A stretch of DNA of 64,000 bases from an uncultured delta proteobacterium (GTDB lineage Bacteria > Desulfobacterota > Desulfobacteria > Desulfobacterales > JAHEIW01): assembly GCA_963706575.1 (NCBI GenBank), contig CAVPNL010000006.1:128001-192000 (forward strand), in the 5' to 3' direction. The notes beneath the pieces are model-generated. The model saw only the letters and a list, made by a program, of their open reading frames with translations. It did no database searches and was not told where the DNA came from. Each line of letters starts with the position of its first letter. The stretch's first letter is position 1. The position numbers and the translations under genes were made by a program. Below are positions 13,007 through 25,943 of this stretch, piece by piece.

Positions 13007-13288
13007 AGATTGTTCGATTCGTAAACACGTTTCCTCCCGAGGCGCTTATGGCCAATCAAAATCAGACCAAAAGCCTTATCCAGCGTTTAACAGCGGAGGA
13101 ATATGTCCGGCGACTTATTCTGCTCCCATTTCAGCCCATCATCTCCCACATCGACGATATTTTTAAAACCAGATGCCGAAAAAGTTTTCATCAATTTTGT
13201 GATTCGAACCGGGACGGTCGCCGATCGGCGCTTGCGGTCGTGAAAGACGGTCGGGTTGATCGGATTACCGATACAAAAGGAGAATATT

Positions 13289-13864
13289 ATGAAAAAGGAT
13301 GATCTTACGCAGGTGAAACACATCGGTGCTTTACGAATGAAAATGCTCAACGATGCGGGGATTAAAACCATCAAACAGCTTTCTGAAATACCGTTGGAAA
13401 AGTTGATCCAGGTAGAAACCATCGGTGAACATTATGCAAAGCTGATCAAGACTGCTGTGGCGGAATCTTATGGGGAAAAACCGGTGAAATCAGCCCCAAA
13501 GGCCGTTTCCGTCAGAAAAAGGAAAACGGCGGCGGCCGATACGGTCTTAAACAACAGGATTGCGGTGCTCAAAAAACGCTTAAAACAAGCCAATGAAAAA
13601 TTAAAGCCCCTGGACAAAAAGAAGTACCTGGAATTGTATGTCGATTTTAAGAAAAGATCCAAAAGGCTTAAGGCCCATCTTGGCCGGCTAAATGAAAACC
13701 CGGGAGATCTTTCCCAAAAGGCTACAAAAAATATCATCAAAAATGCCGATGCCTTGAGTGCCACCTTGAAAAATGTGGGCAAAAAACTCAAGAAGAAAAA
13801 ATATCGACAGGTATCTCAGGAAATTCAGTCGTTTTCTAAAATGCTCAAGAAGACTCGCCCCTAA
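13289..13864 (+). CDS. Helix-hairpin-helix domain protein with lysine-rich helical C-terminus
   Basis: DDLTQVKHIG...LNDAGI...LIQVETIG tandem HhH pattern; AAGGAG RBS before ATG 13289; stop abuts the next start. Confidence 0.8.
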   Translation: MKKDDLTQVKHIGALRMKMLNDAGIKTIKQLSEIPLEKLIQVETIGEHYAKLIKTAVAESYGEKPVKSAPKAVSVRKRKTAAADTVLNNRIAVLKKRLKQANEKLKPLDKKKYLELYVDFKKRSKRLKAHLGRLNENPGDLSQKATKNIIKNADALSATLKNVGKKLKKKKYRQVSQEIQSFSKMLKKTRP

Positions 13865-14648: not shown

Positions 14649-15698
14649 ATGAAAACGATAGAAGCAAAAGAAAATAGACAAAAAGATTCGAAAGAAAAGG
14701 TACCGGGTTCGACGGCACAGATCAGAGATGCTTTGAAGAAAGCCGAATCGGAAGTCACACGTGTCGCTCCGGAAAAACGATTACGCAAGATCGTAAAGGT
14801 TCTCAAGAAAAAGGATAAAAATGAAATTATCCAGGCGGTTTTGGAGAAATTTTATAATGCCGAGGAGTTAAAACCTTACCAGGCGGAGCTTATCAAAATG
14901 CAGCACCATCTGGAACGGACCGGAAAAAAAATGGTGATCCTTTTCGATGGCCGGGATGCCTCCGGCAAGGGTGGGACCATCCGCCGAGTAACGCGCTATA
15001 TGAATGAAAAACGATATCATGTGGTGGCACTGGGCAAACCCAATGAAAACCAGAAGACAGAACTACATATCAAACGTTATATCGAACATTTTCCTTATGC
15101 CGGAGAAATTGTTTTGTTTGACAGAAGTTGGTACAATCGAGCCCTGGTTGAGCCGGTGATGGGATTTTGCACACAGAAGCAATATAACCGCTTTATGAAA
15201 AAAGTGAATACCTACGAGCAAAATTTCCTCGAAGATGACGGCAGGACCATCCTGCTCAAACTCTATTTTTCGGTAAGCAAAGAAGAACAGGCACGGCGCT
15301 TTGATAGAAGAAAGAACGATCCCTTAAGGCAATGGAAACTTTCGGAAGTGGATTTGCAGGCCCAGGACTTGTGGGACGAATTTACCAAAAAAAAATTCAT
15401 GCTGTTAAAAAAGACGCATACCAAAAAATCGCCATGGTACGTCATCCGATCCGACGATAAGCATCTGGCCCGACGGGAAACCATGAAAGTCATCCTTAAT
15501 AGGGTGCCTTATAGAGGAAGAAGCCGCAAATTGGATTTTACCCTGGATCCCAATATTGTTATCCCGGGCGATCGGGAATTAAAGATAATGAAAAAACAGA
15601 CTGAAAAAATATGGCAAGTCCCTGGTGTGATTGCTGAGATTTTTTGGTCCGGGAAAAATATTCCAGATTTCATAGATTGTGTTTTCTTCGTTAATTGA
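14649..15698 (+). CDS. ppk2: Polyphosphate kinase 2 (copy A). The true end is probably 15630 after correcting a +1 base near 15600
   Basis: DGRDASGKGG Walker A, LFDRSWYNRA, DPLRQWKLS lid, PWYVIRSDDK. Confidence 0.93.
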   Translation: MKTIEAKENRQKDSKEKVPGSTAQIRDALKKAESEVTRVAPEKRLRKIVKVLKKKDKNEIIQAVLEKFYNAEELKPYQAELIKMQHHLERTGKKMVILFDGRDASGKGGTIRRVTRYMNEKRYHVVALGKPNENQKTELHIKRYIEHFPYAGEIVLFDRSWYNRALVEPVMGFCTQKQYNRFMKKVNTYEQNFLEDDGRTILLKLYFSVSKEEQARRFDRRKNDPLRQWKLSEVDLQAQDLWDEFTKKKFMLLKKTHTKKSPWYVIRSDDKHLARRETMKVILNRVPYRGRSRKLDFTLDPNIVIPGDRELKIMKKQTEKIWQVPGVIAEIFWSGKNIPDFIDCVFFVN

Positions 15699-15716
15699 TA
15701 AACCGGAGGGGGAAAA

Positions 15717-16722
15717 ATGGCGAAAAAAAAACCGCAGAATAAAAAAAGTAAGAAGAAATCCAAGGCCTTAGCAGTGAAAGAAATTGAACCAATTGCGGTC
15801 AAAGATGAAAAAGCAGAAAAAAAAGAAAAGAAGTCACCGAAAAAAGGCAAAAAACTGAAGCGAAAGTTATCCGAACACACCAGTCTTAAAAAATTTAGAT
15901 AAGAAAAAAACAAAAAAACGCCAGGCCGTTTGGGTAAAAAAATTCACCCTCGCATACGAACAGGAGTTGCATAAGCTGCAAATAGAGCTTTTGAAATGGC
16001 AAAAACATGTCATTGCCAACGAACAGCGTGTATTGATGTTATTTGAAGGCAGGGATGCCGCCGGCAAGGGCGGGACGATAAAAAGGATTATTGAACATTT
16101 GAACCCAAGGGGTGCCCGGGTTGTGGCGCTTCTAAGACCCAGCGACAGGGAACGGACGCAGTGGTATTTTCAAAGATATATTCAACACCTCCCGTCTGGA
16201 GGGGAGATCGTACTCTTTGACCGTAGCTGGTACAATCGTGCCATGGTTGAACCGACGATGGGTTTCTGCACCGATGAGGAGAATAAACGCTTCTTAAAAG
16301 ACACACCGATGCTTGAGTCCATGCTGGTCAAGAACGGAATTATTTTGTTTAAGTTCTTTTTCTCTGTTTCAAAAGAGGAACAGCTGCGCCGGTTTGATTC
16401 CAGAGAGACGGATCCTTTGAAACAATATAAAATCTCCCCGGTTGATCGAGAGGCTCAAGAAAGGTGGGATGATTATACGGTAAGAAAATTCCAGATGCTC
16501 AATGAAACGAACCGAACCATTTCTCCATGGATAATTATCCGTTCCGACAACAAGAAAAAGGCCAGACTCAACTGCATCAAACATATTCTGTCCCGAGTCG
16601 AGTATAAAGGTAAAATTCCCGTGGAGGAAATCGAGATCGATCCTGAGGTCGTGGTATCGGGCATTGATGAAATCAGATTTATGGAAGATCATTTAATGAC
16701 GGGCGTGGAATTACCGGGATAA
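15717..16722 (+). CDS. ppk2: Polyphosphate kinase 2 (copy B) with Lys-rich N-terminal extension; frameshift near 15888-15896 joins ORFs 15717-15902 and 15967-16722
   Basis: EGRDAAGKGG, LFDRSWYNRA, DPLKQYKISPVD; GGAGG RBS at the 15717 start; the downstream frame is open back to the A6 run. Confidence 0.9.
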
Positions 16723-17243: not shown

Positions 17244-17507
17244 CTATTTCTTTTTTTTCGTCTTTTTTCCTTTTTTCTCCGTTTTCTTTTGTTTTTTCTT
17301 TGCTTTTACTTTCTTCTCTTTCTTTTTTTTCGTCTTTTTTCCTTTTTTCTCCGTTTTCTTTTGTTTTTTCTTTGCTTTTGCTTTCTTCTCTTTCTTTTGC
17401 TTCTTTTTCGCTTTCTTTGCCTTCTTCTTTTCCTTTGCTATCTTTACTTCGGCCTCCTCAGTTTTCTTTTCTTCCTCTTTCTTTTCTGGCTCCTTTTTTT
17501 CTGCCAT
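17244..17507 (-). CDS. Histone H1-like, extremely lysine-rich protein (50 of 87 residues K)
   Basis: Strong GGAGGAGGGG RBS, downstream terminator, acidic N-terminus, two 24-aa repeats. Confidence 0.8.
   Translation of the reverse strand: MAEKKEPEKKEEEKKTEEAEVKIAKEKKKAKKAKKKQKKEKKAKAKKKQKKTEKKGKKTKKKKEKKVKAKKKQKKTEKKGKKTKKKK
17247..17390. repeat. 72-bp tandem duplication inside the Lys-rich gene
   Basis: EKK(A/V)KAKKKQKKTEKKGKKTKKKK encoded twice; DNA copies nearly identical. Confidence 0.85.
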
Positions 17508-17702: not shown

Positions 17703-18200
17703 TCATGATTTATGCTTTTTAGGGAATTCGAAGAATTTCAATTTGCCGCAGTTCGCGTTCATATTTGCCCATGATGCAATATCTAAATTCACGCAAAATA
17801 CGCCGCAGGTTGGAATATTGCTGATCGGCTGATCAGCGATGTAATTGGCCAATCCATTTATAGCCGGGTTATGGCCGACGACCATGGCCTCATTCACGGT
17901 ATCGTCAATTTGTTTAACAACATGAATTAAGGCATTTTCACTGAATTCATAAATGGCTTCGCTGTATCGAATATTTTCAAGCGGATAATTGATCGCTGCG
18001 GTAATCATTCGGGCGGTCATGGCCGCTCTGTTTGCCGGGCTGGATATGACGAGGTCCGGTGTTACCTTTAATTTTTTAAGAAGGTTGCCCATAAAAGGAG
18101 CGTTTTTACGCCCGCGTTTGTTCAGGGGTCTTTCAAAATCGTCCAGCTTGGGATATTTCCAGCTTGATTTGGCATGTCGAACGATATAAAGGGTTTTCAT
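17703..18200 (-). CDS. sixA: SixA-type phosphohistidine phosphatase
   Basis: RHAKS, DFERPLNKRG, SSPANRA, VGHNP, PTCG. Confidence 0.9.
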   Translation of the reverse strand: MKTLYIVRHAKSSWKYPKLDDFERPLNKRGRKNAPFMGNLLKKLKVTPDLVISSPANRAAMTARMITAAINYPLENIRYSEAIYEFSENALIHVVKQIDDTVNEAMVVGHNPAINGLANYIADQPISNIPTCGVFCVNLDIASWANMNANCGKLKFFEFPKKHKS

Positions 18201-18267: not shown

Positions 18268-18432
18268 CTACTTTAAGGCCGTCGGTTTATGCAACCATTT
18301 TTTTTTGTCCGCTACTCTGCCGCACTTAGTGCATACGAATTGAGGATTGCGGACGATATCACTGTATTTACCCAGTTTTTTTATGATATCTTCCGACTTC
18401 CATTTGCAGAGCGCTTTTGCTTTCTTTGCCAT
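18268..18432 (-). CDS. 54-aa basic microprotein with Cys/His motif (absent from the ORF track)
   Basis: AAGGAG RBS then MAKKAKALCKWKSEDIIKKLGKYSDIVRNPQFVCTKCGRVADKKKWLHKPTALK*. Confidence 0.8.
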   Translation of the reverse strand: MAKKAKALCKWKSEDIIKKLGKYSDIVRNPQFVCTKCGRVADKKKWLHKPTALK

Positions 18433-18720: not shown

Positions 18721-19464
18721 TTAGGGTACCAGATCTTTTTCCCATTTTTCCACACTCGGGGGCGTCTCGTCCTGCAGCAGAGCCACAAATGCCAGCAGTG
18801 CTTTACGTGCATCTCCGATAGGGTAATAAAAAGCATCCCAGTGCTCGCTATCTTCGCCATCATGAGTGGGAATAACATAGTCGAATTTCCAAGCCTCCCG
18901 CAGCTCGATGATGGCGCTGGCAACCCGCTGCTCGATGTTTTCCAAATCTTTTAGCGACGGATTGATTTTCTGCCTTTTGGTGCGGCGCAGCAGCTTTCTT
19001 CGCATGATATCCGGCAGCAGTTTTCCAAGATCAGTCCGCTGTTGCGGACCTTTAAAGAATACAATCTCTTCGCGGCAAAGGGGCGCGAGAAAAATTTTAA
19101 GCGTCGGAATATCCTTTAGTTCCTTCAATTCACTGAGCTTGGCGGGTATGAAGGGGTTGCCCTCAAAAAAGGCGTCTTTGTTCTGCTCAAGGATCGCTTC
19201 AATACCGGCGATCTCGATAGCCTGTAAATCCCCCCGAACATTCGCCGACGTAAAGCCAGGCTTTTGCGCAAGTTCCTCGATTTGCGCACGCGACCGGAAA
19301 TAGTAGTCCACACCTTCCTGCTCTCCGGGTCGCGGATCACGGCTGTTGTAAAGGACGATCTGCTGCAGTCTTTCCGCCAGTTCTGGATAAAATCTGCGCA
19401 GGGCGTTATAAAGTGGACCCTTGCCGACACACGAGGGCCCCGATAACATAACGAATCGGCTCAT
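18721..19464 (-). CDS. Guanylate kinase-like P-loop protein (atypical)
   Basis: LSGPSCVGKG P-loop, SRDPRPGEQEGVDYYF Gmk motif; AAGGAG RBS. Confidence 0.8.
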   Translation of the reverse strand: MSRFVMLSGPSCVGKGPLYNALRRFYPELAERLQQIVLYNSRDPRPGEQEGVDYYFRSRAQIEELAQKPGFTSANVRGDLQAIEIAGIEAILEQNKDAFFEGNPFIPAKLSELKELKDIPTLKIFLAPLCREEIVFFKGPQQRTDLGKLLPDIMRRKLLRRTKRQKINPSLKDLENIEQRVASAIIELREAWKFDYVIPTHDGEDSEHWDAFYYPIGDARKALLAFVALLQDETPPSVEKWEKDLVP

Positions 19465-19576
19465 ATGTAACTCCTTTCTCGGCTTATCTTGCTTGACTTA
19501 TGCGTCGCGTAGAGGATATTTCGCCTCACTTGTGCTTAAACCTTGATCTCGTTTCTGTTCTCACGGTCAGATAACT

Positions 19577-19751
19577 GGTTTCAGGTGTCAGACATAAATG
19601 GGTTTCAGGTTTCGGGTTTCAGGTGTCAGGGCACTGCGCGTCGCATCGAAACCTGAAATCTCTCTGGAATTGATTCAAGCCCATAGGCCTCAAGGCCAAT
19701 GGAAGGCCCTCCGGGCCAATTGCTGACACCTGAACACAGACACCTGAAACC
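19577..19751. repeat. Short-period palindrome (7-nt unit CAGGT(G/T)T) enclosing small GC hairpins
   Basis: ggtttcaggtttcgggtttcaggtgtcagg ... ctgacacctgaacacagacacctgaaacc. Confidence 0.8.
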
Positions 19752-19754
19752 CTA

Positions 19755-20507
19755 TCATCGTTGATAAAGTATGGTTTTTTGAACCTTGTCCCACAGGTTT
19801 TGATAGGACTTTGCAGCCAGTGAATTTGGTGAGTAGACGGCAACCGGTGACCGATAGATTCCCATTTTTTCAATCTGCGCTAAATAAGGAACAAAGCTTT
19901 GTAAGACGCCCCTAAAATCCTTTGACACGCTAAGCATCAGTTCCCGGTGCATTTTTTTGTGCAGATCCACCATTGAAAAAAAAGGGTAAATCTTAGCGAC
20001 ATCATATCTTTTCTTTTTGCAGAACGCTAGCAATTGGTTATACGTTCGCACAGAAAGCGTGGTGGGGATCATTGGTACAAGGGTGTAGTCAGCAGCGTTC
20101 AATATGTTTTCAGCCAGAATGCCGATGGTAACCGGACAGTCCAGAATTATTAAGCGATATTCACCCGCAAATGGATAAAGCATTTTTTTCAGCCGCTTTT
20201 TTGAATTGCCAAATTTATTATAGAGAACATCTAGCTTGCGAAGCGAGAAATCCGCCGGAAGAATATCCAGGTTTTCAAAATCGGTGCTTTTAACGCTTTT
20301 ATAGACACCTTTGGTCCCCTTGACGAATCCTTTGGGTCCGGACTTGAGTTTGGGCTTTACCCGGAAGTAGTATGAGGTCGAACCCTGGGGATCTAAATCG
20401 CAAATTAAGGTTTTGGCCCCTGTCTGAGCGGCCTGATAAGATAAGTTTACTGCAGCGGCGGTTTTGCCCACTCCGCCTTTATTGCTGTAAAGCGCCAGCG
20501 TTGTCAT
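19755..20507 (-). CDS. ParA/MinD-family ATPase (orphan, no parB)
   Basis: Deviant Walker A KGGVGKT, DLDPQG, ILDCP; start overlaps the CHAD stop (ATGA). Confidence 0.92.
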   Translation of the reverse strand: MTTLALYSNKGGVGKTAAAVNLSYQAAQTGAKTLICDLDPQGSTSYYFRVKPKLKSGPKGFVKGTKGVYKSVKSTDFENLDILPADFSLRKLDVLYNKFGNSKKRLKKMLYPFAGEYRLIILDCPVTIGILAENILNAADYTLVPMIPTTLSVRTYNQLLAFCKKKRYDVAKIYPFFSMVDLHKKMHRELMLSVSKDFRGVLQSFVPYLAQIEKMGIYRSPVAVYSPNSLAAKSYQNLWDKVQKTILYQR

Positions 20508-22063
20508 GAATTATTCTCTCGGACGTTTGAGGCGAAAAGTTCTTGGAACAGCGCCTGATTTGCGGGCGCTGCAAAGTCCGTGAAGGTTCTGGCAAACGCA
20601 TCTTTAACGGACTGTTTTTCGTGCTCCAATGTTTCAACCAGACCGCCGATTGCCACCAGCGTTTTTTTTAAGTGCTGCTGGCTGGCAGGTAATTCCGCGG
20701 TAATACTTAGGAGATATTCTTGCTGAACACAGAGATCGTTGAAGTCCCCTAGATTGTCCTGTAAGTTCTTTAGCTGTTTAATCAAGGCATTAATTTTCTT
20801 GCGAGGAAAAAGACTGGCGAAAAACTCCATCAAATATCGCAATTTTTTGCACTCAATTCTGAGGACATGCAACATCTTATCTTCGGTGTTTGCCAGAATC
20901 TTGTTGCCCGTTTTAACAACCCCCCTGTACTTCTTATAAATTCTCTGGCGTGCCAGATCAATTACGGGAAGCTCCGCATTTGATGCTGTAACCGAAACGG
21001 GCGGCGGCCTATTTAAAAATGCTTCCCAATCCTTCATAATCGTTGCATATTTTTTGGATTTCAGGCCGCGCATGACGTGCTGAAACGCTTTTGCTCGTTT
21101 TTTGCGCAAATGCCGAAACAACGGATCGATGTCATCCCGCAAGACAGCGGGAAGCATCGCTTTATATGCATCTTGGTTGAGCAGATAGACGTCCAAGTCT
21201 CTTAAAGCGTTGGAGCGTTTACCCACATATGCAAAATCTTTCTTAAATCGATCCGTTGTCCTGGTTGAAAACACATTTTTAATTTGAGCCAAGGCCGAGC
21301 GGGTCCTGCGAATCGCCACTCTGAAATCATGTAAAACCTCCGTATCCAGATCCTTTTCAAAGATGGCTTCGTTTATCCGCATGACATTCAACAAAAAGCG
21401 CAAAACAACTTTGGCGGCCTGATCCGAGCGCATTGCCGGGTCGAGTTGGATATTAACTTTGGCAGAATAACTGCCCGGTTTTTTGTCGACGACCGCCAAG
21501 GCCTTAAAATATATATCGTCTGCTTTACCCAAGGTAAACCCGGCGGCTTCGATTCGCGTGGCTAGATTGCGCGCATATTTGGGATATCCTTTGAAGGGTT
21601 TCAGCCATAAATGATTGGCCAACGCCGTTGTGTTTCTTTTACGCAGCGGGCGAATTTCTTCAAAAACCAATCGTGCTACTGTTTTTTCATCCGGGTTTAA
21701 AATGCGATATGGCGTTGATCGGGATTGGAGCTCAACGAGGTGCAAAAGGGCGCGCATCTTTATAATGGGTGCCAATTGTTCCTTTAATTCACCGGCGGGA
21801 AAATCCCAAATGAATACCGGTATCTTGCTGAATTCTACGCTATGCAAAATTTCGCATTTTGCTAGTTTCCGTAAAAACAGCTTGTTTCCGGATGAATACA
21901 AAATGAGTGATTTATTAAATAAGCGCCAGTCGAACGTATCGCAAATCGTAACCCTCTCGGCACCAGCAGGCTCTTTTTTGATGCTGTATTGTCCGGCCAA
22001 TTGGCGAATGAATTGCTTTTCATCATGGCCGCCCGGTAAGTTGAACTTCAGATTGTTAATCAT
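20504..22063 (-). CDS. CHAD-domain polyP-binding protein with N-terminal CYTH-like region
   Basis: LHDFRVAIRRTRS, LRDLDV, LHVLRIECKKLRY, LQDNLGDFND; N-terminal DTFDWRL. Confidence 0.93.
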   Translation of the reverse strand: MINNLKFNLPGGHDEKQFIRQLAGQYSIKKEPAGAERVTICDTFDWRLFNKSLILYSSGNKLFLRKLAKCEILHSVEFSKIPVFIWDFPAGELKEQLAPIIKMRALLHLVELQSRSTPYRILNPDEKTVARLVFEEIRPLRKRNTTALANHLWLKPFKGYPKYARNLATRIEAAGFTLGKADDIYFKALAVVDKKPGSYSAKVNIQLDPAMRSDQAAKVVLRFLLNVMRINEAIFEKDLDTEVLHDFRVAIRRTRSALAQIKNVFSTRTTDRFKKDFAYVGKRSNALRDLDVYLLNQDAYKAMLPAVLRDDIDPLFRHLRKKRAKAFQHVMRGLKSKKYATIMKDWEAFLNRPPPVSVTASNAELPVIDLARQRIYKKYRGVVKTGNKILANTEDKMLHVLRIECKKLRYLMEFFASLFPRKKINALIKQLKNLQDNLGDFNDLCVQQEYLLSITAELPASQQHLKKTLVAIGGLVETLEHEKQSVKDAFARTFTDFAAPANQALFQELFASNVRENNS

Positions 22064-22188
22064 GATTTGATTCTTCAGATAGATATTTTTGGGACACATC
22101 CAGAAGACAAATCCTGGAAATGACGAATGATGACCGCTGAACCTGCTTGTTTCTCTGATATCCGGCTTTACTTTCGCTGAAGCCGCTT

Positions 22189-24435
22189 TTAGACCTTGGC
22201 TTTATTCTTTGATTGCTTACCGATGAGCTCGATAAACATTTCTTGTGCAGCGCATCTTTTTTTACCTTTGCGTAGGCGTCGTCTTACGTATTTACCGTCA
22301 GGCCGCATATCCCAGGCCGAGCAGTTGTCGTTTTCGTAAACTTGCACGGTCTGCTCCAACTCCAGTTTCAGTGTGGGGTCGGTAACGGGCATGATCGTTT
22401 CCATGCGGCGGTCAAGGTTACGCCGCATCCAGTCGGCTGAACCGATGAAGAATTCCGGGTCACCGCCGTTTTCAAACCGATAGATGCGTGAGTGCTCTAA
22501 AAAACGACCGAGGGTGCTGTAAACCCGTATCGTTTCGGATAGCCCGGGGACCCCCGCGCGCAGGCAGCACAGACCGCGAACATTCAGGCTTATGGGCACG
22601 CCTGCTTGACTGGCAAGGTAAAGTTCGCGAATCATACGTGCGTCCTGGAGCTGATTCATTTTGGCCCAAATACCTGAAAGACGGCCTGCCTGGCTGTGCT
22701 GCATTTCGCGATGGATCAAGTCGGTGAAGCTCTCGCGCAAATTGTAAGGAGCGACCATTAGCTTGCCGTAGCCGGGAGAAGGCGTGGCGCCTGTCAGTTC
22801 GTTGAACAAAGCCGCAACATTCGCTCCTAGTTCCGGTTCACAGCTCAGAATGCCCATGTCTTCATAAATTCGAGCAGTAATGGTGTGGTAGTTTCCGGTC
22901 CCCAAGTGAACATAGCGGCGGATGCCGTCTTTTTCTTCGCGGACGACGAGAGCCAACTTTACGTGGGTCTTCAGTCGCTCTACACCGTAGGCAACGTGAG
23001 CGCCCTCGCGCTCCAGTCGTCTGCCCCAGGCGATGTTCGGTGCCTCATCAAAGCGCGCTGTAATCTCCACCAGCACCGCTACCTGCTTGCCCTGCCGCGC
23101 CGCTTCCATCAGCGCCAGAATAATCGGCGAATCACTGCTGGTGCGATAGATGGTCAGCTTGATGGCCAGCACCTGTGGGTCAACCGCCGCACTTTGCAAA
23201 AAATGCAGTATGGAACTGTCGAAGCTGTGGTAAGGATGGTGCAATAAAATATCACCTTTGCGAATTTCGGCGAATATGTCTTCAGAATCGCTAAAATCTA
23301 AGCGTCGCAGACGGGGATGGGTTACCGGCTGATGGGGTGGATCGCGCAGTTCCGGGTAACCCTCCACCTGGAACTTCATCAAATCCGCCAGACTCATCAG
23401 ACCCTTGACAGGTTCGAGATCACTTGGATCAGCCTTGAGTTGCTCGCAGATCCAGCGTTGCAGCTTTTTGGGCATGTTAGCGCTAACCTGAAGGCGTGTT
23501 ACACCGGCAAATTTTCGGGCGGTCAGTTCTTCTGTTACCATGCCGATGAGCCGACCCGGAATAAGATCGGCATTAGGATCTTCCAAAATTGTCCGTTCCC
23601 ACGGGTCATCCTTGGCGACGCGGGTTACGCGGAAAAAATAATACTTAAGGCCGGCTGCCTTGGGGAATAGCAGTCTGAGGTTGGACGCGATCACCTGCTC
23701 CAACGGAACAAACCCTTTGCTGCCGGGCAGAGGGACCCAGCGCGGGCGGTTTGCCGGAACCTTGATGCGCACGAAGCGATTGCGTTTCTTTTTGGTTTCC
23801 TTAACCTCCACCGCAAGGTTGAGCCCCAGGTTGCTGATAAAAGGAAAGGGGTGTGAAACGTCCACGGCAAGCGGTGTCAGGATGGGCTCCACCGATTCAA
23901 GGAAATAGCGCTTCATTTGTTTCTGATGTTGGTTACTCAACTCCGTATATTCTACAATGGGGATTCCGGCCGCTTTCAAAGCGGGTCGAAGCTTATGGGT
24001 CACCAAACGAGAAACGAGGTAAGCCTGTCTATGTAATTCTTCTCGGCAGGCTTGCAGTTCCTCCTCTGGACTTAGCCCGTCGGGGGACAGTTTCTTTTTC
24101 TTTTTGCGTTTCCTTTTCTCTATCTTGCGTTTGAGCCCACCCATACGCTTCATCGCAAACTCGTCGTACAACATACCCATGATGCCAGCGAACTTGACAC
24201 GTTCAAGCAAGGGTAAATGCTTATCTTCTGCAAGTGCGAGCACCCGGCGGGCAAAGCTGAGCCAGCTTAACTCACGGTTGATGAGGGTACTTGGTGAATC
24301 AACATCGATTTTTTTCGGTTTTTCCGCGGTTCTTGATGCCGGTTCTATGGGCATATCTTTTGCAGTAGAAATGCCGGTTAACTGGCCTCCCCTGGCAATT
24401 AACGGTTTTTTGGGCTGATGCTCCTGAGGACTCAT
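22189..24435 (-). CDS. ppk1: Polyphosphate kinase 1
   Basis: NRELSWLSF, HPFPFISN, LLHHPYHSF, ARFDE, KTHVK, GRFLEHSR, SADWMRRNLDRR. Confidence 0.96.
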   Translation of the reverse strand: MSPQEHQPKKPLIARGGQLTGISTAKDMPIEPASRTAEKPKKIDVDSPSTLINRELSWLSFARRVLALAEDKHLPLLERVKFAGIMGMLYDEFAMKRMGGLKRKIEKRKRKKKKKLSPDGLSPEEELQACREELHRQAYLVSRLVTHKLRPALKAAGIPIVEYTELSNQHQKQMKRYFLESVEPILTPLAVDVSHPFPFISNLGLNLAVEVKETKKKRNRFVRIKVPANRPRWVPLPGSKGFVPLEQVIASNLRLLFPKAAGLKYYFFRVTRVAKDDPWERTILEDPNADLIPGRLIGMVTEELTARKFAGVTRLQVSANMPKKLQRWICEQLKADPSDLEPVKGLMSLADLMKFQVEGYPELRDPPHQPVTHPRLRRLDFSDSEDIFAEIRKGDILLHHPYHSFDSSILHFLQSAAVDPQVLAIKLTIYRTSSDSPIILALMEAARQGKQVAVLVEITARFDEAPNIAWGRRLEREGAHVAYGVERLKTHVKLALVVREEKDGIRRYVHLGTGNYHTITARIYEDMGILSCEPELGANVAALFNELTGATPSPGYGKLMVAPYNLRESFTDLIHREMQHSQAGRLSGIWAKMNQLQDARMIRELYLASQAGVPISLNVRGLCCLRAGVPGLSETIRVYSTLGRFLEHSRIYRFENGGDPEFFIGSADWMRRNLDRRMETIMPVTDPTLKLELEQTVQVYENDNCSAWDMRPDGKYVRRRLRKGKKRCAAQEMFIELIGKQSKNKAKV

Positions 24436-24929
24436 GATTTCTTTTTTCTCCGATCACCACAATTGATGGAGCGCTAATTTCATGAATTGACGAAGCGGGA
24501 AATATCGAATTGGCAAGAACGCGCGTTTGATAAACTTGCGAGACGTATTGTGGATCGACTTCAGGATTGTCGCAGGTTGTGAAATCAAATTTTTTCCCGA
24601 ATCAATGCTTTATAGATGACAGTCGGATTGAATGTCAACCCAAATTAATAAAGAATGCTGGTAACCCATTAATTTTTAATCGATTTTTTGCATGCTTGTT
24701 TTTGCGTTAAGCCATATAACTGAAAATTTATAAAAATGCAGCCAGGCGTTTACTCAAAATGGGAAGCCATGCAGCATTTGACTTTCTCATGAACCTGCTT
24801 CACAATATCATTAATGCAAATTTATGATTTCGTTTCGCTGGTTGGTTTTTGGCGCCTTTAACCAAATGCCGCAAGTGCGGACAGCCGTTTATTTTAAGCC
24901 TTAAAATTTCATTTAGAGCACTTTTTATC

Positions 24930-25943
24930 ATGGAATCACAATTAAAATTTGCCGCCATTGATATCGGCTCAAATGCCGTCAGACTTTTATTGTCCGGTGT
25001 ATTTGAAGAAGCGCATTCAGCGAGTTTCAGAAAAATGTCGTTGATCCGTATGCCCATTCGCCTGGGTGATGATGCCTTTACTCAAAAATGCATTTCTGAC
25101 AGCAAAGTCTCACAACTTGTCAAGAGCATGATCGGGTTCAAACACCTGATCGAAGCCTTCCAGCCGCTGGATTATATGGCCTGTGCCACATCGGCCATGC
25201 GTGAGGCGGAAAACGGGCCGGAGATATGCAATCGAATTCTCCAAGAATCTGACATAAAAATTAATATTATTGATGGCAAAACAGAGGCGCAATTTATTTT
25301 TGAGAACAAAAGTGCAGATATGTTCGGTGGAAACGATGCCTACCTGTATGTGGACATCGGCGGGGGTAGCACGGAAATTACCCTGTTTTCACAAGGCCGA
25401 ATCATTACATGTGGTTCATTTAACATCGGAACCATACGATTACTGGAGGGCCTGGTATCAAAGGCGTATTGGAAGAAAATGAGACTGTGGCTGAAAAACT
25501 GCTCCGCTCCCTTCACTTCATTGGCGGCGATTGGAAGCGGCGGTAATATTAATAAGATATTTCGTCTGGCAAACTGTAAAAACGGTAAACCGCTTTCGGA
25601 TAACAAGATGATGAAAGTCCGCCGGTTTTTAAAGCATTTTACCGTTGAGCAACGCATCAGGGAATTAGCTTTACGGCCGGACCGAGCCGACGTCATCATT
25701 CCGGCATTGGATATTTATCTTAAGATTATGAAATGGGCCGGTATCCGTAAAATCTACGTTCCTCAAGTCGGCTTAGCCGATGGTATCGTTCGCACATTAT
25801 ATGATAGATATAAAGTTTTATCCATTTTCCTGAAAGATTTCTTTGGCCACACGAAGGCTGTCCATTGCCGCCGGAACACCACAATAAATGGCGGCCTGGA
25901 GGAGAACCTCCATGATATCGTTCTTGCTACAGCCATTGTTTAA
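24930..25943 (+). CDS. ppx: Exopolyphosphatase Ppx/GppA (short form); 3' end overlaps the convergent CMD gene
   Basis: AAIDIGSNAVRL, ATSAMREA, DIGGGSTE, DRADVIIPA, GLADG. Confidence 0.92.
   Translation: MESQLKFAAIDIGSNAVRLLLSGVFEEAHSASFRKMSLIRMPIRLGDDAFTQKCISDSKVSQLVKSMIGFKHLIEAFQPLDYMACATSAMREAENGPEICNRILQESDIKINIIDGKTEAQFIFENKSADMFGGNDAYLYVDIGGGSTEITLFSQGRIITCGSFNIGTIRLLEGLVSKAYWKKMRLWLKNCSAPFTSLAAIGSGGNINKIFRLANCKNGKPLSDNKMMKVRRFLKHFTVEQRIRELALRPDRADVIIPALDIYLKIMKWAGIRKIYVPQVGLADGIVRTLYDRYKVLSIFLKDFFGHTKAVHCRRNTTINGGLEENLHDIVLATAIV

Follow-up and report, generated by a model that had tools for sequence, protein, structure and literature searches.

A gene for a CHAD-domain protein (positions 20504-22063) and a gene for a ParA-type ATPase (19755-20507), both on the minus strand, form a conserved two-gene module tied to polyphosphate (polyP) in a stretch of 64,000 nucleotides from an uncultured delta proteobacterium. 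This stretch, referred to here as the window, is part of contig C6; the genome measures 5.67 Mb, and its closest named relatives are Desulfobacterales. A partnership between the two proteins is likely, and the positioning of polyP granules is a plausible output of it. As the best explanation we propose that the pair may act as a two-protein machine that places or shares out polyP granules, a reading to which we give a probability of roughly 0.42.

A conserved gene pair tied to polyphosphate

The CHAD gene lies 125 bp downstream of ppk1, which encodes polyphosphate kinase 1 (22189-24435, minus strand, TIGR03705 match above cut-off), and its stop codon shares an ATGA with the start codon of the ParA gene (20504-20507, minus strand). 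The longest open reading frame (ORF) of the CHAD gene starts at 22099, but the start supported by homologues is the ATG at 22063. A scan of the window at 12-26 kb covered 13 neighbouring ORFs, and none of them encodes ParB, MinE, Che or a carboxysome protein. The original prediction, made from the letters of the window and a list of its ORFs, had described the position downstream of ppk1, the overlap, the start at 22063, the KGGVGKT signature lysine of the ATPase and the lack of parB, minE and che neighbours, and each of these descriptions is borne out (the overlap by the ORF coordinates, the start by the homologues and the lysine as K10 in SNKGGVGKT).

The arrangement recurs in related loci. 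Where related loci include upstream DNA (76 loci), the CHAD gene sits directly upstream of ParA in 72, and the order CHAD then ParA on one strand is kept in 108 of 110 loci with both genes (a few genomes are included twice in this count), 47 of the 108 having the four-base overlap. At least one of ppk1, ppk2 and ppx is present in 34/47 related loci of at least 10 kb. Named records with related loci come from Desulfobacterota, Poribacteria, Chloroflexota, Calditrichota, Deferribacterota and beta-proteobacteria. Clade-like ParA genes also occur on eleven plasmid records, and plasmids of Paracoccus aestuarii DSM 19484 and P. marcusii carry an operon of a 62-aa ORF, CHAD, ParA, an intact CYTH and NUDIX (L228:4299-7651, L229:4288-8249). 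By eye, the 62-aa ORF is ribbon-helix-helix-like.

The pairing is also seen at the level of whole genomes, when CHAD proteins of the window type (pseudo-CYTH-CHAD, with an N-terminal domain of the CYTH fold that lacks the ExExK motif) are compared with ATPases of the same clade as the window ParA. Such a ParA is present in 40/40 Bacteroidota genomes with a pseudo-CYTH-CHAD (39 adjacent; 201 genomes sampled), although these carriers are probably mostly one lineage, presumably Chlorobia. It is likewise present in 50/54 such genomes of one Desulfobacterota order, that of genome G016 (49 adjacent; 161 genomes sampled), in 5/6 from a sample of the window's own phylum that overlaps the preceding one (one convergent; 151 genomes sampled), and in 6/7 Pseudomonadota, the divergent G191 counted (301 genomes sampled). 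Genomes with other CHAD types have no clade ParA in the own-phylum sample (0/8) or in Chloroflexota (0/64). The kin within these samples are not independent, so that the counts overstate the number of events. The pairing exceeds chance, and the dependence is one-sided: this CHAD type nearly always occurs with the ParA, and the ParA is often alone.

Two proteins and the likely contact between them

The CHAD protein (519 aa) folds into two domains in an AlphaFold2 model (pLDDT 92, pTM 0.87). The C-terminal domain, predicted to bind polyP, spans residues ~200-512 (PF05235 match at 221-451, 1.5e-55) and is 39% identical to CtCHAD of Chlorobium tepidum. The closest solved structures are those of CtCHAD, including its polyP complex, both by sequence (E 2e-61) and by fold (TM 0.94-0.95). 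In CtCHAD, H253, R256, R260, R296, R418 and Y419 are reported as the polyP ligands (PMC6537752); the equivalent residues H245, R248, R252, R288, R409 and Y410 are kept in 83/83 rows of our alignment. The protein is therefore likely polyP-binding, being orthologous to a polyP-bound structure and having all six ligands intact.

The N-terminal domain (residues ~1-190) has the CYTH/TTM fold. Foldseek matches it to many TTMs (E 7e-05 to 1e-02), 28 of 30 matches in an Atlas search are CYTH at 0.93-0.94, and there are weak profile matches to classical CYTH. The Pfam CYTH model gives no match to the window protein, and an hhalign comparison with one classical CYTH sequence found nothing, so the assignment rests on the fold and the Atlas matches; by fold, the label 'CYTH-like' used in the original prediction is right. 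The ExExK motif, which we take to be the metal-binding motif of CYTH/TTM proteins, is absent from all 82 rows of the pseudo-CYTH-CHAD type and present in 7/9 classical CYTH-CHAD proteins, which, again unlike the window type, occur without a clade ParA. We read the N-terminal domain as a pseudo-enzyme because it has this fold without ExExK. Its conserved residues are D42, R104, K127 and G159-Y160.

The ParA protein (250 aa; Pfam AAA_31, 8.9e-32) is a Soj-related ATPase of a separate and very basic clade, with a net charge of +21 and a pI of 9.8, compared with net charges of -5 and 0 in two Soj proteins. The ParA/MinD (A/D) family is defined by a Walker A motif of deviant form, KGGxxK[S/T], with a signature lysine (PMC11407121). 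In the clade, K10, K15, D39 (the motif-2 aspartate, Soj D40) and D123 (Walker B) are invariant in 169/169 sequences, and by sequence the clade thus has the deviant Walker A motif and catalytic aspartate of this family. A clade profile built from 42 relatives gives 350-390 bits for members from five genomes and at most 128 bits for the other ParA/MinD proteins encoded there. The phylogeny that had been suggested as a check for a CHAD-linked clade (76 rows; a quick search with no bootstrap, leaving out near-duplicates, five contig-end rows, a row on a long branch and two outgroup rows of poor quality) unites 58/58 clade rows (SH-aLRT 99, stem 0.76) and separates them from ParB-linked Soj, a ParA linked to bacterial microcompartments (BMCs), MinD and FlhG. 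Soj is the sister group, MinD and FlhG belong to the outgroup, and the deepest branches within the clade are stand-alone ParAs. The closest solved structure is 8RAY (E 9.7e-20, residues 6-241); McdA structures match over residues 1-163 only (E 7e-07). Across the 169 sequences there is no C-terminal membrane tail, a median of 11 residues following W239 and at least 20 residues in 11/169.

The strongest evidence for a direct partnership is the pattern of K127 and G159-Y160 across copies with and without an adjacent ParA. In the model, a hairpin has K127 at its tip, the following strand ends with G159-[YF]160, and the strand order makes it likely that the two are neighbours in space. This motif is kept in 92/92 proteins with an adjacent ParA, is lost in 7/9 copies without one, and is broken in 5/5 genomes in which no clade ParA was found (the domain is gone from one of these, and another retains K127). 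In a tree computed from only the CHAD domain (59 of 101 rows), the losses correspond to seven separate changes, all in rows without an adjacent ParA. Six of the motif-loss rows still have the domain, and D42 and R104 survive in all of them; this speaks against a general decay of these copies, although some of the rows are long branches.

Fusion proteins add a second line of evidence. Of 89 longer ParA homologues, 11 carry a Pfam CYTH domain in addition and 15 a CHAD domain, and HAD phosphatase and solute-binding domains are fused to 9 each. One fusion of ParA, pseudo-CYTH and CHAD (P0133), in which the order is reversed and the linker is clean, is on record twice; its predicted fold (pLDDT 90, pTM 0.75), computed from an unpaired alignment with no controls or contacts, gives a rough estimate between undocked and docked. 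In the set that includes the HAD and solute-binding fusions (P0123-P0131, P0146-P0178), many other proteins have an unannotated tail, and the five tails inspected resemble a partial CYTH by eye. On the ATPase, R49 is Arg in 113/113 CHAD-paired and 11/51 stand-alone rows; in independent pairs p is 0.5, and a link between R49 and CHAD pairing is a lead only.

Granule placement and its alternatives

In the mechanism that we propose, the CHAD domain would hold the polyP granule, its binding of polyP being very probable given its orthology and its six ligands. The enzymatically dead CYTH domain would dock the ATP-bound ParA dimer; its hairpin K127 and G159-Y160 would probably touch ParA directly, as the co-loss and the fusions suggest, K127 possibly playing the role of the basic residue in ParB and MinE. 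An ATP-dependent dimer switch of ParA is again very probable from the intact catalytic residues. Finally, ATP cycles of ParA on the nucleoid would space or share out the granules, with DNA as the track, bound through a shifted basic patch at residues 182-184 in place of the Soj R218 site. This placement on a DNA track is the weakest step, with odds that we put only a little above even. The logic would be McdAB-like, but probably with a different, charge-reversed activator interface.

Several observations weigh against this reading, beginning with the surface of the ATPase. R218 is reported as a DNA-binding arginine of Soj (PMC3778016), and R238E in Myxococcus xanthus ParA is reported to abolish DNA binding (PMC12462528). 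In the clade, the column of Soj R218 has K/R in 0/169 sequences and D/E in 65/169, and that of Soj R189 has K/R in 118/169 and is H in the window ParA. The pocket for the ParB arginine in M. xanthus ParA is described as Y81/E82/D110/E117 (PMC12462528), and in an alignment-based mapping with a 20-residue offset these positions would correspond to K59/G60/S88/L95 of the window ParA, beside which R90 is near-invariant in the clade. Loop 47-75 has on average 7.95 K/R and 1.44 D/E, compared with 2.57 and 4.86 in seven Soj-type ParAs. Judged from these alignments, the ParB-binding face of the ATPase has flipped its sign, from an acidic pocket to a basic surface, which speaks against a plain copy of McdAB. 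The CHAD protein, for its part, has no free basic N-terminal tail, since in the model the CYTH fold's first strand opens the protein.

Other points concern the evidence for contact and the reports on known systems. The motif is lost in 2/4 unlinked copies although the genome has a ParA; the sign test for co-loss over independent pairs gives five in the same and none in the opposite direction (p 0.0625), too few for significance; and 13 of the 15 CHAD fusions are in the usual gene order, several of them looking like frameshift joins. Spacing of polyP granules is reported to need no ParA-family ATPase in Synechococcus (PMC13556221) and to be done by AlgP in Pseudomonas (PMC9239181). Clade ParAs occur without a pseudo-CYTH-CHAD in 59/65 Pseudomonadota carriers, 9/49 Bacteroidota, 3/53 of the G016 order and 1/6 of the own phylum, and the neighbours of stand-alone ParAs are mostly unrelated to polyP, so the clade has jobs or partners outside the proposed mechanism.

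The original prediction had made the CHAD protein the granule-bound adaptor that stimulates ParA. This is partly supported. In favour are the CHAD-linked ParA clade, separate from Soj, MinD and FlhG, the intact polyP ligands and the likely adaptor role of the catalytically dead CYTH domain, suggested by motif loss and fusions; against a plain McdAB form of it stand the lack of K/R at R218, the basic pocket and the missing basic tail.

The altered surface also bears on the main rival to placement, in which there is no nucleoid ratchet. Here a granule-bound complex would form in which the ATPase binds polyP through its basic face and, as an ATP switch, governs the loading or release of CHAD, CYTH or PPK proteins, by which the number, size or turnover of granules would be set. 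The basic loop 47-75, the change of the pocket to K59/G60/S88/L95, the near-invariant R90 and the absence of Soj R218 all favour it. Fusions of ParA to intact CYTH (11/89) and to HAD phosphatases (9/89) point the same way. On the other hand, the normal DNA-binding face keeps a basic patch: K184, the residue next to the R189 column, is K/R in 169/169. Compared with Soj the charge of the C-terminal face goes both ways, with 3.7 K/R against 1.6 in the R189 region and 1.9 against 2.7 in the R218 region. By its sequence, a basic surface cannot discriminate DNA from polyP, and the reviewed literature, in its available text, describes no ParA/MinD protein that uses polyP as a matrix. We consider this rival unlikely.

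Two further features that agree with a polyP-binding switch come from Pseudomonadota, where ppk2 lies directly upstream of the clade ParA in 4/30 loci and a large stand-alone group is found in magnetotactic genomes. About 37 of the Pseudomonadota carriers seem to form a single magnetotactic lineage (grouped by handle order and tree), with the magnetochrome family in 5/5 tested genomes of the stand-alone group; in 36 of the ~37, a plain CHAD match is present at another place, often next to ppk2. Magnetotactic cocci reportedly contain large polyP inclusions (PMC8786505). In L101, L104, L105 and L106 (L204 repeats L101), a two-domain PPK2 stands directly before the clade ParA with no CHAD between; in another phylum, an HHH_5 protein lies directly upstream of a stand-alone clade ParA (L190:4433-4873). 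A reading that would take in the stand-alone members is that of a widespread, previously undescribed ParA subfamily with polyP as its dedicated target, in which the dead CYTH domain would be the cargo adaptor, K127 the activating basic residue and the positive ATPase face a reader of polyP, with stand-alone members, such as the magnetotactic ones, acting directly on granules. It is rather unlikely as it stands.

The stand-alone ParAs are also the chief support for an explanation in which the ATPase serves some other cargo or process and merely travels in the polyP cluster, making no contact with the CHAD protein. Indeed, the ParA is alone in most Pseudomonadota carriers, among unrelated neighbours, and the deepest branches of the clade are stand-alone. 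That this CHAD type depends almost one-to-one on ParA, that the genes overlap, that the motif is selectively lost where ParA is gone, and that ParA-CYTH and ParA-CHAD fusions exist all argue against such co-travel and make it improbable.

Neighbouring genes, related systems and implications

Around the pair, the window carries further genes of polyP metabolism. A ppx-type exopolyphosphatase gene (24849-25943, plus strand) is divergent to ppk1, and a tandem pair of ppk2 genes lies at 14649-16722 (14649-15698 and 15967-16722, plus strand). A SixA-like histidine phosphatase is encoded at 17703-18200 (minus strand), and in relatives sixA is the commonest recognised gene behind ParA (18/80 loci) and is present in 32/47 long loci. 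A guanylate-kinase-like protein (18721-19464, minus strand) is found in only 8/47 long related loci; its family match is limited to the first 100 residues and falls below NCBIfam cut-offs. The remaining neighbours include a metallophosphoesterase and small basic proteins.

The frequency of SixA speaks for a signalling or metabolic switch for phosphate or energy status, in which the pseudo-CYTH protein would relay the action of the ATPase to soluble PPK1, PPK2 or SixA and a spatial role would be absent. The fusions of ParA to phosphatase-type and solute-binding domains agree with this, as does the report that deletion of phosins in several organisms barely disturbs granule formation (PMC13556221). 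The ParA/Soj core, however, is closest to chromosomal ParA (8RAY and the tree), the studied members of the family mostly place cargo, and no regulatory domain is attached; signalling thus has a low probability.

Three small Lys-rich or basic proteins of the cluster are of separate interest. The first (13256-13864, plus strand; net +31) has a likely helix-hairpin-helix (HhH) N-terminus and a Lys-rich, probably helical C-terminus, with weak matches only, and is a candidate accessory DNA tether. It is found in 21/47 long related loci and is the first recognised gene behind ParA in 13/80; by hhalign its C-terminus is not a half-CHAD (probability 0.8%). The second is an 87-aa poly-lysine protein with an acidic N-terminus (17244-17507, minus strand), recurrent in the polyP cluster. 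ORFs resembling it occur in 19/80 related loci, often beside sixA or ppk2; with the composition of a histone-H1-like tether, it could bind DNA or polyP and is a candidate accessory factor. The third, a Lys-rich protein of 54 aa with CxW...CxxCG (18268-18432, minus strand), is found in 33/80 related loci and is possibly a small zinc-binding member of the cluster.

Just downstream of ParA lies an inverted-repeat element (19567-19752) with a 15-nt core, of which the genome has 65 copies in 50 clusters. It resembles a repetitive extragenic palindrome (REP) or a miniature inverted-repeat transposable element (MITE), and we reject it as parS because of these copies and its presence in only 3/80 related loci. 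These short repeats had given some support to a role of the ATPase in partitioning the chromosome or a mobile element, as had the eleven plasmid records with clade-like genes and the label of plasmid partition gene for the parA of the Acidithiobacillus folD-ppk-parA-CHAD cluster (PMC10892726). That explanation is largely refuted and very improbable: beyond the distribution of the repeat, there is no ParB nearby, the pocket for the ParB arginine is lost, no annotated parB stands beside the four clade plasmid copies inspected, and the source genome has a separate Soj-type ParA on contig C8 with a ParB-like gene behind it. Sites resembling parS also lie elsewhere in the genome than at the ppk1-CHAD-ParA locus. 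A promoter and terminator scan of the locus gave results at chance level, and matches in RNA runs are only contigs of relatives (90-99% identity), uninformative on transcription or co-transcription.

Set against known systems, the pair resembles McdA/McdB in having a ParA-type ATPase without ParB beside the gene for a predicted non-DNA-cargo protein, and a cargo-bound partner with an ATP-switched dimer would be expected as well (PMC11407121, PMC13556221). It differs in that the partner is a 519-aa folded protein of pseudo-CYTH and CHAD, lacking the free N-terminal region and carboxysome binding of McdB, that the likely cargo is polyP, and that the DNA-binding face of ParA is altered. The suggestion of an McdAB-like system thus stands in its ATPase without ParB and its adjacent partner, and falls short in the missing N-terminal tail, the changed DNA face and the 59/65 Pseudomonadota ParAs without a partner. 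With Soj/ParA of ParABS systems, the clade shares its nearest solved homologue (8RAY), the catalytic residues and a sister-group position in the tree, but it sits on a long stem, has no parB next door, lacks R218 and has a basic surface in place of the acidic ParB pocket. Unlike MinD and FlhG, which fall in the outgroup, it has no C-terminal membrane-targeting helix. By these sequence features the clade ParA is neither Soj nor MinD, and, though like McdAB in logic, it falls short of membership in that family. Two other ATPases were noted in passing: an FlhG/MinD-like ATPase of the source genome with an N-terminal extension of ~145 residues (L082:4074-5390), and a different orphan ParA from a Calditrichota genome, encoded next to a BMC shell gene (L238:597-1892), possibly a microcompartment positioning pair.

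On the side of the partner, CtCHAD (PDB 3E0S, 6QV7, 6QVA), grouped here with the phosins PptA and YgiF, shares the CHAD fold and the six ligands. CtCHAD was studied as residues 208-522 (PMC6537752) and therefore also has an N-terminal part of ~200 residues. By analogy with relatives cited in PMC6537752 and PMC13556221, the window protein would sit on polyP granules. AlgP, PhaF, PhaM and PhaH are links between nucleoid and storage granule that influence spacing (PMC13052382, PMC9239181), but they are single DNA-binding proteins without an ATPase; the poly-Lys and HhH-like proteins of the cluster resemble these tethers by make-up only.

The closest published arrangement, compared by its published labels, is the folD-ppk-parA-CHAD cluster of Acidithiobacillus (PMC10892726, PMC6416229), in which ppk1, parA and a CHAD gene also stand together. 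The order is written there as ppk-parA-CHAD, the CHAD protein is labelled an adenylate cyclase of the CYTH kind, and no polyP role is assigned to the parA. The association of CHAD and ParA genes is thus already in print for Acidithiobacillus, without a reading as granule positioning. Our literature searches for CHAD, CYTH or phosin with ParA and polyphosphate returned only these two reports and no paper proposing a polyP role. The pair goes unmentioned in the available text of three reviews (PMC11407121, PMC13052382, PMC11894788), and the main text of a 2026 preprint surveying ParA immunity contains neither CHAD nor CYTH.

The placement of polyP granules is described as open in a 2025 review, which includes the use of energy in it (PMC13052382), and in a 2026 paper (PMC13556221). 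The CHAD-ParA pair offers a concrete two-gene candidate, with K127 and Y160 of the CHAD protein and K10, D39, R49, R90 and K184 of ParA as candidate positions for mutation, and it is also present in cultured non-pathogens, on plasmids of P. aestuarii DSM 19484 and of P. marcusii and probably in Chlorobia. If the proposed role is true, an inorganic polymer would join the cargos of the ParA/MinD family, CHAD proteins would gain a mechanical role, and a pseudo-enzyme would act as an adaptor. Should the clade instead prove to be dedicated to polyP as a whole, it would be the first ATP-driven machine organising polyP granules.

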